Below, piece by piece: positions 34,186 to 38,725 of a DNA stretch of 44,606 bases (its first letter is position 1; every line of letters begins with the position of its first letter). The position numbers and the translations under genes are program-made. The stretch is taken from the IMG/VR virus record IMGVR_UViG_2711768040_000011, positions 1 through 44,606 of that record. The stretch is one strand, 5' to 3'. The stretch is from a virus (taxonomy: Duplodnaviria > Heunggongvirae > Uroviricota > Caudoviricetes). The notes below the pieces were generated by a model. It saw nothing but the letters and a program-made list of their open reading frames with translations. It had not been told where the DNA came from and ran no database searches.

Positions 34186-34724
34186 ATAACCCCCAGCATC
34201 GACGTGACCATCGTCATCAGTGGTCCTACCTGCTCCGGCATGAGGCGGAACAGCGAAGCTATACCCTCGCTTACCTCTTTCAGCTTCTGATGCTCTGGGG
34301 CGTCCAAAAGCACGGCCTGTTTAGCTTCAGCACACTCTTTCATCGCAGAAGCGATCAGCGACATCGTGTCGTTCTGCGGCGCCAGGCGGTTGCGGTACTC
34401 CAGCGGCAATACGGACATGATTGCGGGTGTCAGCTGGCGCACGTTCTCGCGGTACTGTTCGGAGTCGAAACGGTTATCCAGGAAGCGGAACAGCTTCTGG
34501 CGCGCACGGCTGATGTCGTCAGGAAAGCTGATGGCGGTCCCGCCCTGCTCCCGGTATTCGTTGATGATCAGTGCCGAAACGACGTCCTGATTGTCCAGCG
34601 CCGAAGACCATGCCCGGACCGCATCGCGGATCTTTTCGTGGTCAGGCGCCGCCTTAGGTTGAGCGCGGTTTATCATCGCTCCCGGGTGTATTCCGGTATT
34701 GTGTTGATACGCAAGTGAATGCAT
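34182..34724 (-). CDS. YdaT-like protein (functional CII-equivalent family of Rac-type prophages)
   Basis: INEYREQGG and LTPAIMSVLPLEYRNRL blocks resemble Rac YdaT; located directly downstream of Cro-like gene. Confidence 0.6.
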   Translation of the reverse strand: MHSLAYQHNTGIHPGAMINRAQPKAAPDHEKIRDAVRAWSSALDNQDVVSALIINEYREQGGTAISFPDDISRARQKLFRFLDNRFDSEQYRENVRQLTPAIMSVLPLEYRNRLAPQNDTMSLIASAMKECAEAKQAVLLDAPEHQKLKEVSEGIASLFRLMPEQVGPLMTMVTSMLGVM

Positions 34725-34741
34725 TGCTTTCCCTTTCGTGG

Positions 34742-34975
34742 TTAGGCCGCAGTATCACGCGGCGATGCGAATACCAGGCTTTCTTTTAGGACCGGAGCCT
34801 GGCGGTGAAAATTCTTCGTGCCTTTCTCGATAGCAGATGCCATTTCTGGAGATGCCCGGCGATTTCCGTAGGCGATCTGGTCCAGGTAACCTGGCGTCGT
34901 GTTAGCCAACTTTGCGAGCTGCGCCCATTCGTCGGTAGTGGCGGCCTTGCGCCAGCGGTGTAGTTCAGTGCTCAT
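34742..34975 (-). CDS. Cro-like / YdaS-like HTH regulator
   Basis: 77-aa ORF with HTH (WAQLAKLANTTPGYLDQIAYG), divergent from cI across operator region. Confidence 0.65.
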   Translation of the reverse strand: MSTELHRWRKAATTDEWAQLAKLANTTPGYLDQIAYGNRRASPEMASAIEKGTKNFHRQAPVLKESLVFASPRDTAA

Positions 34976-35007
34976 TGGTGTCTCCGGGTGAGTCGTTTGA
35001 TTTGGAG

Positions 35008-35073
35008 TTTAGCGTTATGCTAAATACTACGCAAGCATCATTTAGCAATTTGCACATTTATCATTTTGCTAAA
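35008..35073. promoter_or_regulatory. OR-like operator cluster (TTTAGC-N5-GCTAAA palindromes) with divergent promoters
   Basis: TTTAGCgttatGCTAAA at 35008-35024, TTTATCattttGCTAAA at 35057-35073, weaker site at 35041-35057. Confidence 0.5.
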
Positions 35074-35091
35074 AGCAGTAACAATGCAGGT

Positions 35092-35769
35092 ATGGAAAAT
35101 AAAGAAATCAGAAAAGCCAACCTGGAAGCGCTGTACGAGAAGCGTCAGCACGAGTCTGGAATGACCAAAGCGCAGTTTGCCGAGCTCATCGAGACAAGTC
35201 CGGCTGCGCTTAGCCAGCTACTGGGACCAAACCCTCATCGCAATATCGGCGATAAGATGGCTCGCAAAATTGAAACTGCGCTTGATCTGCCTTTTGGCTG
35301 GATGGATGTTTTACACGCCAGTGAAGAACCTTCGAACGTTGCATTTCGAGGACTGAACGAGACAAAAGGAAGTTATCCTGTAATCAGCTGGGTAAGCGCG
35401 GGGCAATGGATGGAAGCTGTAGAACCTTATCACCGAAGAGCGATAGATCGCTGGTATGACACGACTGTTGACTGCTCAGAAGATTCATTCTGGCTGGACG
35501 TTAAAGGGGATTCTATGACCTCCCCGGCTGGACTGAGCATACCCGAGGGAGCAGCGATACTTGTTGATCCTGAAGTCGAGCCGCGCAACGGAAAGCTGGT
35601 TGTCGCGAAGCTAGAAGGCGATAACGAAGCGACCTTTAAGAAGCTTGTAATCGATGCCGGCAGACGCTTCCTAAAGCCCCTTAACCCCGCATATCCAATG
35701 CTAGAAATTAATGGAAACTGCAAAATCATCGGCGTTGTGGTTGATGCCAAAATACTAAACATCCCATAA
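35092..35769 (+). CDS. cI: CI-type prophage repressor (HTH + LexA-like S24 autopeptidase)
   Basis: N-terminal HTH, Ala-Gly cleavage site (SAGQW), GDSM Ser and FKKL Lys motifs; ATG 35092 (ORF open from 34975). Confidence 0.9.
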   Translation: MENKEIRKANLEALYEKRQHESGMTKAQFAELIETSPAALSQLLGPNPHRNIGDKMARKIETALDLPFGWMDVLHASEEPSNVAFRGLNETKGSYPVISWVSAGQWMEAVEPYHRRAIDRWYDTTVDCSEDSFWLDVKGDSMTSPAGLSIPEGAAILVDPEVEPRNGKLVVAKLEGDNEATFKKLVIDAGRRFLKPLNPAYPMLEINGNCKIIGVVVDAKILNIP

Positions 35770-35788
35770 CCTCACGCAAAACCCCTCA

Positions 35789-35813
35789 AGCCCGCCATCG
35801 CGCGGGCTTTTTT
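35789..35813 (+). terminator. rho-independent terminator after cI
   Basis: agcccgc-catcgc-gcgggct hairpin followed by TTTTTT. Confidence 0.6.
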
Positions 35814-35885
35814 ACGTCCCGAATTCCTTCGCTGTAAATTTTTAATCGCTTATTAATCAATACGCTAAATAAAACCATTCAACAA

Positions 35886-35927
35886 TTTAGCATTTTGCTA
35901 TTGCGCATAATTTAGCATCACGCTAAA
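35886..35927. promoter_or_regulatory. OL-like operator cluster (TTTAGC-N5-GCTAAA)
   Basis: Perfect TTTAGCatcacGCTAAA at 35911-35927 and partial TTTAGCattttGCTAtt at 35886-35902. Confidence 0.45.
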
Positions 35928-36124
35928 TTCACCCTATCGAAACGAAACATCGACAGCTGAGCGAAGTTAGCCAGCGGCGAAGTGGAGATTCGGTCAGTCG
36001 AACGGCGCGACAGTAAACCATGCGTCGGACCATAGGCGGGCTCAGGAAGAGCGGCAATTATGGCTAAACGATTTACCAGCAGCTCTTTGCGAGGGGCTGA
36101 CGGTAAACAATCAGAGGGGTGTAT

Positions 36125-36466
36125 ATGTCAGATAAAAAAATGGCGCCACTACTGCTCAATGTAGACGCCAGCGAAGTGCTTACCCAGACCGGGGAGCTTT
36201 TAAAGTTACTTGAACTTCCAGCCAGCTCCCTTCAGGGAATTCCTGAGCATGTCGTCGATCTGTTTTTTGACCGTGTCCGTGGCCTGATTGACAACATCGT
36301 CCTTAGTGATTTCGCGACCACAGTCAGCACAACTGACGCCGGTGAAATTTGTCTCAAAGTCAAAATCATCGGGCTGGTTGAACATCTCACTTCCGCAGTC
36401 AGGGCACACGGTCCGCATGGTTTGCATGAACATATCCTTTCTACTGTTGGGGAGCTTAAAGAGTAA
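36125..36466 (+). CDS. hypothetical protein (first gene of early-left operon); conflicts with antisense ORF
   Basis: 113-aa ORF with GAGGGG SD, same strand as downstream early genes; not Arg-rich. Confidence 0.4.
   Translation: MSDKKMAPLLLNVDASEVLTQTGELLKLLELPASSLQGIPEHVVDLFFDRVRGLIDNIVLSDFATTVSTTDAGEICLKVKIIGLVEHLTSAVRAHGPHGLHEHILSTVGELKE
36206..36433 (-). CDS. alternative antisense small zinc-ribbon protein (two CxxCG pairs)
   Basis: MFMQTMRTVCPDCG...CADCG ORF with AAAGGA SD; fully overlaps 36125-36466 on opposite strand, so only one is likely real. Confidence 0.3.
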   Translation of the reverse strand: MFMQTMRTVCPDCGSEMFNQPDDFDFETNFTGVSCADCGREITKDDVVNQATDTVKKQIDDMLRNSLKGAGWKFK

Positions 36467-36655
36467 GCGATTTCTTGCTGTTGGGGAATAGCGGGAAAGC
36501 GCGCGCCGGGCGCGGATAAATACCCCGGCAATAACTGGAATGTTTTGTAGTGCAGTGAATTGCAGCTGCATCGACGGCAACCGGAAGATAAGCACCCGGC
36601 GCTGCACCACAAAGCATTTCTCCCGCATCAGCGGGTAACGACAGAGGGTAAGGGG

Positions 36656-36952
36656 ATGATCGACGACATCAAGCGCATCGACTCAATGATAAATGCGCTT
36701 CGCAATATGAAACAGGACATCAAGCGTCAGCAGAAACTAAGTGAAATAAACAGTTTAGACCTGTCGCCGAAGCAAGCTCAAAAGCGCAATGCCGATGCTG
36801 ACTGGATTGCGATGGAACAGATTAAGCGTCGGCATGAGCTGCACGCTCTGTCTGTTGAGCTTGGGTTCGCTGAGCGCCGGGAAAGTTATGCTCCATTTGA
36901 ATTAACTGACGGGTGGCACCGATTCGACCACAAGCCGCGCGAACCTCAATAG
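36656..36952 (+). CDS. hypothetical protein
   Basis: 98 aa from ATG 36656 with GGGTAAGGGG SD (ORF open from 36560). Confidence 0.5.
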   Translation: MIDDIKRIDSMINALRNMKQDIKRQQKLSEINSLDLSPKQAQKRNADADWIAMEQIKRRHELHALSVELGFAERRESYAPFELTDGWHRFDHKPREPQ

Positions 36953-37107
36953 CCGCCTAACCAGCGGCTTTTTCATACCTGGAGTCATTTACGAGTGGCT
37001 CAAGTTATGACAACCGGCGGCCATCCACCGCCCATTGAAACACTGAATAAATGCGTTGAAGTCTTGTATTAACCGTTCCGTTCGCCGCGATAAGGCCAAG
37101 AGGATTT

Positions 37108-37317
37108 ATGAGTGATTTGGAGTTGGGCTTAAAGATATACGCATTATGGTTTGTCGGGACGTTTCTGCTCGGCATAGCAATCAACTCGCTGACGAAAAAA
37201 GAACATCGCCAGCCACTTTCAAAACTAGCCATTGACCATGTACGCATGTCTTCCGCAATAACCATTGTGGGCCTGATTGTGTGCGGTATGGGCTGGTTCT
37301 TATTCAAGGTGGTGTGA
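37108..37317 (+). CDS. small membrane protein (two predicted TM helices)
   Basis: 69-aa ORF, AAGAGGA SD, hydrophobic segments. Confidence 0.55.
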   Translation: MSDLELGLKIYALWFVGTFLLGIAINSLTKKEHRQPLSKLAIDHVRMSSAITIVGLIVCGMGWFLFKVV

Positions 37318-37318
37318 G

Positions 37319-37477
37319 ATGACAGTCACCCACAACGGCAAGCAGTACACCGCCAAAAAGCTCAACGATAACGAGTGGCAGCTGACGTCGGTATCTAACC
37401 CGCGTGAAAAGCTGACGATGAACCGCTGGCATATGAAGCTGGCTGGCCTCCTGGAACAGGTTGAGGTGAAGGCATGA
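37319..37477 (+). CDS. small hypothetical protein
   Basis: 52-aa ORF MTVTHNGKQY... starting right after previous stop. Confidence 0.4.
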   Translation: MTVTHNGKQYTAKKLNDNEWQLTSVSNPREKLTMNRWHMKLAGLLEQVEVKA

Positions 37478-37683
37478 TCAACCACTACGGCACCACCCCG
37501 CTCATTCGCCAGTGCGTCACGCCCGGCATGATGGCATTGCATGAAGGCCGCACATATCGCGTCTCAGCAGTCATTCAGGAGCGCAAATGGGTATACCTGC
37601 ACACTGACGCAGAAATAATCCGACTCAGTGACTGCGTGATTGACGTCCTTCTTGACGGTCACGGCAACCCTATCCAGCACTAA
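37474..37683 (+). CDS. small hypothetical protein
   Basis: 69-aa ORF with ATGA overlap to upstream ORF. Confidence 0.45.
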   Translation: MINHYGTTPLIRQCVTPGMMALHEGRTYRVSAVIQERKWVYLHTDAEIIRLSDCVIDVLLDGHGNPIQH

Positions 37684-37753
37684 CCACCCTATTCAACCGT
37701 TCGGCCTGGCATTACGCGGGCGGGATCTGCACATCCAAATTTCAGGAGAAACC

Positions 37754-38725
37754 ATGAGCGAAGTAACGGACTTAACTGTCATCGAAATCAAGCCGGAACA
37801 GGCCCCAGTGCTTTACGTAGCGGGCGGCCTTGACGCGTACCTTGAGCAAATCCGCCAGGCTGTAAACGAAGTGCCGGACCTGTCCACGAAGAAAGGCCGT
37901 GACCGTGTTGCCTCTCTGGCAGCGCAGGTGTCCCGCAGCAAGACGGCAATCGAAAAGCCGGGCCGTGAGTACCTGAAGCGCCTGAAAGAGGCTGTGCGTC
38001 CGGCTGAGGCCGAAATTAAGCGATTCGTTGATGCCTGCGACGAGCTGCGCGATGCGACCCGCCGCCCACTCACCGAATGGGAAGCCGAGCAGGAACGCAT
38101 TAAGGCTGAAGAAGCCATGAACGCGATGCACGCCGAAGCGCTGGAGATGAACATCAGGTTCGATCAGGAACTGGCTGCCAAGTTCGAAGCGGACCACGAA
38201 ATGGCTCTACTGATGAACAAGGATTTTGACCGTGACCGCGAAGAGCAGCGCCGTCTGGCGGAACAGGCTCAGCGTGAACGTGATGAGCGGCTGAAACAGG
38301 AAGCGGCAGAACAAGCCCGCCGCGATGCCGAAGCGAAGCACAAAGCGGAGATTGAAGCCGCAGCGCGCCGTGAAGCCGAAGAGAAAGCCCGCGCTGAACT
38401 GGCGGAGCGCCAGCGCGTCGAAGCGGAACAGCGTGCAGCTCGCGAGAAGCAGGAAGCGGAAGCCCGGGCGGAACGCGAAAAAGCCGCGGCGGTTGAAGCC
38501 GAGCGCCTGAAGGCCAAACAGGCCGAAGATGCCCGCCTGGCCGAAGAGAAGCGCCTCGCCGATGAGCAGGCAAAGCGTGAAGCTGACGTTAAGCACCGCA
38601 AGACGGTCGGCACCAACATCGTTAACGCGCTCACCAGCCAAACCAGCTTAACCCGCGAGCAGGCTATCGAAGTGCTTACCGCTCTGAAAGATGACCTGAT
38701 CCCCTGCGCGAAAATTCATTACTGA
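37754..38725 (+). CDS. coiled-coil protein with long E/A/R/K-rich low-complexity region
   Basis: Start MSEVTDLTVIEIK with AGGAGA SD (ORF open from 37640); about 150 aa of AEQARRDAEAKHKAEIEAAARREAEEKARAE-type repeats. Confidence 0.6.
   Translation: MSEVTDLTVIEIKPEQAPVLYVAGGLDAYLEQIRQAVNEVPDLSTKKGRDRVASLAAQVSRSKTAIEKPGREYLKRLKEAVRPAEAEIKRFVDACDELRDATRRPLTEWEAEQERIKAEEAMNAMHAEALEMNIRFDQELAAKFEADHEMALLMNKDFDRDREEQRRLAEQAQRERDERLKQEAAEQARRDAEAKHKAEIEAAARREAEEKARAELAERQRVEAEQRAAREKQEAEARAEREKAAAVEAERLKAKQAEDARLAEEKRLADEQAKREADVKHRKTVGTNIVNALTSQTSLTREQAIEVLTALKDDLIPCAKIHY

Follow-up and report, generated by a model that had tools for sequence, protein, structure and literature searches.

What does the early-left operon of a lambdoid prophage begin with when two open reading frames (ORFs) occupy the same DNA on opposite strands? 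We have analyzed this question in IMGVR_UViG_2711768040_000011, an IMG/VR record of a virus belonging to the Caudoviricetes, over its whole stretch of 44,606 nucleotides (nt), referred to below as the window. An initial annotation of this DNA had noticed, at the head of the operon, a plus-strand ORF of 113 amino acids (aa) overlapped by a minus-strand ORF for a zinc-ribbon-like protein, and had offered them as alternatives: either an unknown protein opens the operon or a convergent zinc-ribbon gene is found there. Our analysis indicates that each alternative was right and that only their exclusion of one another was not, both frames being under selection. The locus is probably a conserved dual-coding module, each of its two ORFs being a genuine gene for a protein.

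The plus ORF, which we call orf113, was confirmed at 36125-36466, in the orientation of the operon and behind the GAGGGG Shine-Dalgarno already noticed. It can start at a GTG (36119) or at an ATG (36125), ends at 36466 and is the first ORF on the transcript of the leftward promoter PL. The zinc-ribbon ORF (CPDCG...CADCG) and its AAAGGA Shine-Dalgarno are also present, but not with the extent first given. The maximal minus-strand ORF (36206-36628, 140 aa) holds both motifs and has an internal ATG at 36427. Because the in-frame part upstream of this ATG is not conserved (it varies from 4 to 100 codons among relatives), the independently called relatives have 72-76 aa and the NCBIfam model of the family has 60 positions, we take the gene to be 36206-36427, with 73 aa (the Zn gene from here on), and the 140-aa form to be an over-extension. 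In this form it is nested entirely within orf113, on the opposite strand. The first 27 residues of orf113 lie clear of the Zn gene, the stretch 28-101 is encoded opposite it, and the protein closes with a variable tail, 102-113. The codons of both genes are in exact register, so that the first plus position pairs with the third Zn position and the two second positions face each other. This in-register antisense frame is the one in which chance "shadow" ORFs are most frequent, and for this reason the openness of both frames is by itself weak evidence. Actually, in one control gene from the same loci the equivalent frame was open in 70% of its sequences.

The comparison set comprised about 160 related prophages. 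Openness was scored on 92 unique sequences from 152 loci. Substitutions were counted as Fitch parsimony steps on a neighbour-joining tree of 75 unique homologues without insertions or deletions (indels), anchored on the cysteine motif. As controls we scored six single-coding genes from these loci in the phantom antisense frame that is in register with each of them. Since the ratios dNN/dNS and dSN/dSS, calibrated on flanking genes, were judged not decisive, we used a test of radical versus conservative changes. Specifically, the changes that are synonymous in the Zn gene were split by their effect on the plus protein (radical meaning a BLOSUM62 score below 0), with transitions and transversions kept apart.

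The 27 codons of orf113 located past the stop of the Zn gene (36125-36205) are free of Zn constraint. In 26 of them (36128-36205) the plus positions 1, 2 and 3 had accumulated 72, 51 and 114 steps respectively (p=2e-6), which is the periodicity of the plus frame. The ratio of nonsynonymous to synonymous changes (dN/dS) of this frame was 0.43, the lowest of the six frames, and it is the only one without stops. The phantom continuation of the Zn frame past its own stop, taken as an internal control, gave a dNN/dSN of 0.70 with a bootstrap interval that includes 1. No indels were found in these 26 codons within the close family, and some N-terminal residues were invariant with synonymous change only, such as the Glu of a DA[ST]E motif (0/0/4 steps at the three positions) and an Ala (0/0/2). 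Besides, an ATG with a GAGG or GGGG Shine-Dalgarno from a few to about 10 nt upstream was present in nearly all of the 13 lineage representatives, one of them (L006) having GTG for ATG. These start signals recur despite unrelated upstream sequence, and a separate Shine-Dalgarno and start codon recur for both genes in the lineage representatives.

Inside the overlap, the changes that are synonymous for the Zn gene and radical for the plus protein were depleted between 4 and 8 fold. The ratio of radical to conservative changes was 0.12 for transitions (confidence interval, CI, 0.03-0.25) and 0.23 for transversions (CI 0.04-0.74), against 0.53-1.39 and 0.77-1.24 in the six controls, none of which showed such a depletion. 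These low values suggest, therefore, that the silent sites of the Zn gene are filtered by their effect on the plus protein. Most four-fold sites of the Zn gene were nearly frozen (0-3 steps), two others having changed 10-12 times on the same tree. Its Leu codons were CTC, which the plus strand reads as Glu, in 72% of the cases versus 14% in the controls. The AlphaFold2 model of the orf113 protein is a single alpha/beta domain (predicted local distance difference test, pLDDT, 73.3; predicted template modelling score, pTM, 0.57), and its predicted secondary-structure elements continue unbroken from the non-overlapped N-terminus into the overlapped part. The protein had no match in Pfam, NCBIfam or the sequences of solved structures and only a weak one in PHROGs (phrog_29546, 7.5e-4); its model had none below E=0.1 when compared by Foldseek with PDB and BFVD. 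Altogether, the comparison indicates that orf113 is a genuine gene, whose protein is under purifying selection within the overlap as well as beyond it.

The association of the two frames is old. Both were open in all 92 unique sequences, a set that includes Edwardsiella phage Edno5, at 34% identity of the plus protein, and a viral contig at 57% identity; prophages of Salmonella, Citrobacter and Cronobacter carry both ORFs. With the independent signs of purifying selection in each frame, this takes the pair well past what chance would give. A search of 1.84 billion representatives with a profile of the plus protein recovered 63 clusters (at 50% identity), most of about 95-105 aa and matched end to end. 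We have examined the DNA of five of the most distant of these homologues (E 1e-11 to 8e-4). In all five the N-terminal D[AT]SE motif of the plus protein could be recognised, read outside the Zn gene where this was checked, two of them having substitutions (DQSA and DISA). In four of the five there was an intact in-register antisense CxxCG...CxxCG ORF that ends within the plus ORF; in one of these four the gene caller had called both strands. The fifth, a metagenome contig of ENA (L169 134-433), has CPDFG and an internal stop in the Zn frame and an intact plus ORF, and may represent a lineage where the plus gene survives without its Zn partner. The plus protein of L169 was seen on 6 contigs. 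Thus, the two genes have been kept together from close relatives to homologues that only a hidden Markov model (HMM) profile can recognise. In HK639, Edno5, a Klebsiella phage and prophages of Hafnia, Citrobacter and Cronobacter, the plus ORF points the same way as the early-left genes and is usually beside the repressor or N. In another distant relative (L167 152-633) the start of the plus-family gene lies 4 nt inside the end of a small HTH_35 gene, an arrangement that suggests translational coupling to a regulator.

Several points have to be set against the dual-coding reading and against the switch that we propose below. Computed naively, the dN/dS of the plus frame reaches 0.94 within the overlap, standard statistics being confounded there. 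The OLGenie-type dNN/dNS was 0.52 (CI 0.32-0.86), borderline with respect to the 0.59-0.97 of the six controls, and dSN/dSS, for which only about 2 doubly synonymous sites are available, did not reach significance. The bootstrap intervals are too narrow, since the sequences share phylogeny, and understate the uncertainty. The AlphaFold2 model of the Zn protein, from a 6-sequence alignment, has low confidence (pLDDT 57.5). A stringent scan found no consensus sigma-70 promoter for the Zn gene, and the -10 and -35 proposed here are weak. The case for dual coding comes wholly from comparative sequence analysis, and the functional coupling of the two products, and with it the switch, is conjectural because neither protein has a structural or functional analogue.

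The first two of these figures fit the RefSeq/PGAP view, namely that only the minus-strand zinc-ribbon gene is real and that the plus ORF is the shadow of a gene that rarely uses TTA, CTA and TCA. In-register antisense frames are often open by chance, as in the control mentioned above, and the chance of openness per lineage was here between 0.19 and 0.74, because Leu and Ser are scarce in the Zn protein. The product of these chances over 11 lineages is 10^-4.6 if they are independent, which is an upper bound on the significance since the lineages are related. However, a lone Zn gene leaves unexplained the 27 codons past its stop, with their periodicity, low dN/dS, absence of stops and indels, start signals and deeply conserved N-terminal motif. 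It also fails to account for the depletion of plus-radical changes, absent in the controls, and for the intact plus ORF of L169 opposite a broken Zn frame. We consider this explanation improbable.

No better are the chances of an intermediate situation in which both ORFs are translated and only the N-terminal 30 or so residues of the plus protein matter, the remainder being an unconstrained tail whose sequence is set by the Zn gene. Certainly, the clearest coding signal of the plus frame is found outside the overlap, and the last 12 residues differ from lineage to lineage in both length and sequence. Nevertheless, the filter on radical changes operates within the overlap, no truncation of the plus frame was seen among the 92 unique sequences or the distant homologues that we examined, and the domain predicted by AlphaFold2 runs across the overlap boundary.

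The evidence for the Zn gene is of the conventional kind. In the overlap the Zn codon positions 1, 2 and 3 had 90, 47 and 210 steps, an excess at the third position, and the gene had a dN/dS of 0.17 and a dNN/dSN of 0.16. C8, C11, C33 and C36, and indeed the whole CPDCGSEM, were invariant in the aligned close relatives, with Cys codons that change synonymously; in more distant homologues the first knuckle varies (CPNCG, CPKCG, CSRCG). In the window 15 different single-base changes that are silent in the plus frame would create a new stop in the Zn frame, and none was seen in the 92 unique sequences. An AAGGA-type ribosome-binding site is found 6-8 nt 5' of the Zn ATG in the lineage representatives. 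The protein (calculated isoelectric point, pI, 4.5) scored 83.4 bits against NF047912, whose curated cut-off is 37, with residues 6-62 aligned to positions 4-60 of the full 60-position model; its two CxxC(G) knuckles are about 21 residues apart and the length of its relatives agrees with the family. It also matched phrog_4852 of PHROGs at 3e-8. These data indicate that the Zn gene is a genuine protein-coding gene under purifying selection, with zinc binding as a predicted property.

Other assignments of the Zn protein were also considered, and it is not a member of the Lar or MqsA families. It scored 17.0 bits against the Lar family (TIGR03655, cut-off 39.6), with PHROG Lar-like families only at E of about 0.09, and 16.7 bits against the MqsA/YgiT-type zinc fingers (TIGR03830 and TIGR03831, cut-offs 61.8 and 20.2), and it does not have the helix-turn-helix of MqsA. 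The candidate defence protein PDC-M14A of PADLOC gave a weak and partial match (E=7e-6, 24 bits, model positions 20-90 of 152). Sequences of solved structures returned generic zinc fingers only, and a scan of the genome contigs with the Zn alignment gave no confirmed relative.

The opposite view, implicit in the GenBank records of HK639, Edno5 and the Klebsiella phage, is that only the plus ORF is real and the zinc-ribbon pattern a by-product. Gene callers mostly choose the plus ORF (22 clusters versus 10 at 90% identity), the plus protein is modelled with higher confidence than the Zn protein and the Zn frame is broken in L169. However, the distribution of changes over the Zn positions is the wrong pattern for a plus-only gene, and strong purifying selection, cysteines that persist through synonymous codon changes, missing stops, conserved start signals and a family model matched over its full length would all have to be accidental. 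We regard it as very improbable.

That the minus-strand unit is chiefly an antisense RNA or a transcriptional roadblock against PL, with an incidental protein, is hardly credible: the unit does converge on PL and, in most contexts, separates it from N or the early genes, but an incidental protein would not show so low a dN/dS, invariant cysteines in the close family and a conserved ribosome-binding site. Lambdoid phages do use antisense RNAs, such as OOP of lambda (against cII) and sar of P22 (against ant), and those transcripts are non-coding. The initial annotation had suggested a possible antisense regulator. A convergent small zinc-ribbon gene between PL and the early genes is what we find; as its only role, antisense regulation is disfavored by the strong purifying selection on the Zn protein. 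An effect of the RNA, or of transcriptional interference, in addition to the protein is plausible. The same initial annotation had named synonymous-site conservation in only one frame as the result that would speak against it; constraint was detected in both.

Public databases divide the pair between them. GenBank records annotate the plus ORF (gp45 of HK639, gp50 of Edno5 and the Klebsiella phage), whereas RefSeq genomes of E. coli carry an "ECs_2282 family putative zinc-binding protein" on the minus strand, often in an over-extended form. The zinc-ribbon coding sequences of PGAP have 140-150 aa because the longest ORF is chosen (for example L002 3277-3729), and the family model covers only their last 60-70 residues. 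In a collection of 5.8 billion proteins clustered at 90% identity, the plus family forms 22 clusters (one with 378 members) and the Zn family 10. The plus family, with its approximately 60 clusters, and NF047912 are two descriptions of the same loci. No paper on this gene pair was found in our search of the literature, and the term "ECs_2282" appeared in none of the searchable literature.

The features of the region are collected in Table 1. The locus is at the head of the early-left operon, as the initial annotation had it, the order being PL, a putL-like RNA, the plus ORF and the N gene of phi80 type.

Table 1. Coordinates in the window of the two nested genes and of the elements around them.
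Feature	Position	Strand	Description
orf113 (plus ORF)	36125-36466	+	113 aa from ATG; HK639 gp45 / Edno5 gp50 family; calculated pI 5.2
Shine-Dalgarno GAGGGG of orf113	36114-36119	+	5 nt 5' of ATG
Zn gene (zinc ribbon)	36206-36427	-	73 aa; C8-x2-C11 ... C33-x2-C36, then C-terminal helix; NCBIfam NF047912 "ECs_2282 family"
Shine-Dalgarno AAAGGA of Zn gene	36435-36440	-	7 nt 5' of ATG at 36427
Probable PL	35901-35929	+	predicted; -35 TTGCGC 35901-35906, 17-nt spacer, -10 TAAATT 35924-35929
putL-like antiterminator RNA	35996-36128	+	core 35996-36058 homologous to HK022 putL; 3' limit as in HK639 record
Phage phi80 N antiterminator	36656-36952	+	98 aa; next gene of the operon; phrog_25091 at 7e-62
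Terminator tL1A	36951-36969		follows N
Putative Zn promoter/operator	36444-36488	-	predicted, weak; -35 TTCCCC 36488-36483; -10 TACTCT 36465-36460
GC-rich element	36496-36531	-	outer edge of module; two overlapping, mutually exclusive hairpins, GCCGGG/CCCGGC and CC(A/G)CGC/GCG(T/C)GG

The probable PL is set amid operator-like TTTAGC...GCTAAA palindromes, and its -10 aligns with the pL -10 annotated in the phi80 record; a stringent consensus scan called no promoter in the region, PL included. Downstream of it, the putL-like region has 97.4% identity to the HK639 region in which a "putL-like antiterminator RNA" is annotated, and as drawn in that record its 3' end covers the GAGGGG Shine-Dalgarno of orf113. 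The core has 79% identity over 63 nt to putL of HK022, HK75 and O276. A two-stem consensus has, in stem II, 5 pairs with compensatory changes when the HK639 type is compared with the HK022 type, the fold of the single sequence not being distinctive (z = -1.2). By homology, the two stems, covariation and its site downstream of the predicted PL, the element is assigned to the HK022/HK639 put RNAs, with antitermination as its predicted function.

This region is a mosaic. The window is 94% identical to phi80 at 35926-35979 and 99.7% from 36610 onward, N included, and over 35936-36651 it is HK639-like (92.7%). A segment of about 630 bp (35980-36609), which opens with the HK639-type put RNA and also carries the gene pair, stands in for 320 bp of phi80 (L153 1254-1573) that contain nutL boxA and core. 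The phi80 nut core CACGTAAACGTG was absent throughout the 44.6-kb window, in which a second put-like copy was not found either. With the phi80 leader replaced and no nut core, N may be an orphan or use a site that we do not recognise. Further along the operon there is a second antisense ORF pair, 37277-37477 (+) and 37300-37542 (-), of 66 and 80 aa, and the phi80 record annotates both members (gp43 and gp42) as "antisense to" each other. A search of Rfam over 34500-38000 gave only a Trp_leader-like match (35736-35815, 23 bits for a gathering score of 41), which we consider a chance resemblance; it coincides with the intrinsic terminator that follows the cI-like repressor gene.

Upstream of the Zn gene, a TAnnnT hexamer ending 31-34 nt 5' of the Zn ATG was the best sigma-70-like candidate in 29 of the 41 unique sequences compared there. 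A pair of direct repeats (plus-strand CTGTTGGGG, at 36444 and 36478, 34 nt apart) is conserved across lineages; Hafnia and Edno5 have a variant on the Zn strand, TCCACAGTCAA. The repeats, CTGTTGGGG(A) at 36444-36454 and 36478-36488, overlap the putative -35 and the predicted transcript start and bracket the putative -10, and they look like paired operator sites for a regulator. As the stringent scan calls no promoter there, the Zn promoter stays at the level of a prediction. Beyond it, the arms of the GC-rich element covary, GCCGG:CCGGC becoming GCCTG:CAGGC, and also in CCAC/GTGG (one compensatory pair was computed and the rest were found by eye). Counterparts of this element occur in L003, L061, L063, L068, L069 and L151, and it marks the edge of the module because the sequence past it is unrelated between phages. 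RNAalifold gave only a 4-bp stem on the Zn leader, the alternative hairpins being read by eye. The element, for which Rfam gave no match, could be an RNA switch or a protein-binding palindrome.

What might such an arrangement be for? One possibility, which we put forward tentatively, is that the two products alternate between lysogeny and lysis. In the lysogen the repressor would shut PL, and the Zn gene would be transcribed from its own predicted promoter, which points towards PL. After induction, RNA polymerase modified by put would run from PL head-on through the Zn promoter and express orf113. The Zn gene would then be silenced in two ways, through transcriptional interference and through an RNA that is complementary to its message. 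The tha/ith antisense unit of the S. aureus phage 80alpha provides a demonstrated precedent. Because the two genes are always co-inherited, their proteins probably act in one pathway, for example as a lysogen-phase function and its lytic-phase counterpart.

It has also to be considered whether the two proteins bind physically and neutralise each other. Their hydropathy profiles mirror one another (r = -0.80 over 73 codons), which follows from codons that are complementary and in register. We think mutual binding unlikely. If true, the module would be a self-contained two-state device, made of a lysogen-phase effector and a lytic-phase inhibitor or of a toxin and its antidote, whose partners could never be separated by recombination because both are the same DNA. 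It would also be a natural and old example of the long-debated complementarity between sense and antisense proteins.

Long antisense overlaps between protein genes of bacteria and phages are widely deemed annotation artefacts. The accepted cases that we found in the literature are few, young and based on expression data, whereas the pair described here is old and co-conserved. It exposes a systematic gap in annotation, each public pipeline keeping one strand (GenBank the plus, RefSeq the Zn). It is also a clean test case for dual coding, since the in-register geometry permits single-base stops in one protein with the other unchanged. It occupies the regulatory centre of a lambdoid prophage, with PL and its put RNA on one side and N on the other, and there an alternation of the two products, if true, would be biologically meaningful.

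Among known systems, the "noncontiguous operon" of 80alpha, tha/ith, includes an antisense gene with its own promoter, and its lysogenic and lytic transcription are mutually exclusive (Nat Microbiol 2024, PMC11087260). Both systems have a gene for a small protein antisense in a prophage operon and driven by its own promoter, a predicted one in our case, and in 80alpha the two products belong to one pathway; the exclusive states were demonstrated there and are only predicted here. However, the antisense gene of 80alpha faces the cI operon and is a lytic-phase gene, while the nested gene described here faces PL. Here one coding sequence lies completely within the other and in codon register with it, and the two systems are unrelated in sequence.

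In E. coli O157:H7 (ano, asa and others) and in Pseudomonas aeruginosa there are also embedded antisense ORFs of which annotation keeps one of the two, as happens here. The Pseudomonas pair was described as evolutionarily novel, based on ribosome profiling. The pair described here falls in the same rare class, that of antisense overlapping genes for proteins. Unlike these cases, it is co-conserved to the depth of an HMM profile, with comparative evidence of selection on both frames. The likeness of the Zn protein to Lar/RalR (TIGR03655) and to the CxxCG fingers of MqsA/YgiT, which are also small phage or prophage proteins with two CxxC knuckles, is that of any generic zinc ribbon, and the weak matches are no evidence of membership. 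The convergent transcription in the early region recalls OOP/cII of lambda and sar/ant of P22; here, however, the antisense transcript would encode a conserved protein. Finally, the upstream element resembles put of HK639 (97%) and HK022 (79% for putL) in sequence, in its two-stem shape and in its location downstream of PL. HK022 differs in that the prophage studied here has in addition an N of phi80 type, and the put core is located about 60 nt past the predicted transcript start, whereas in HK022 it is found almost at the start.

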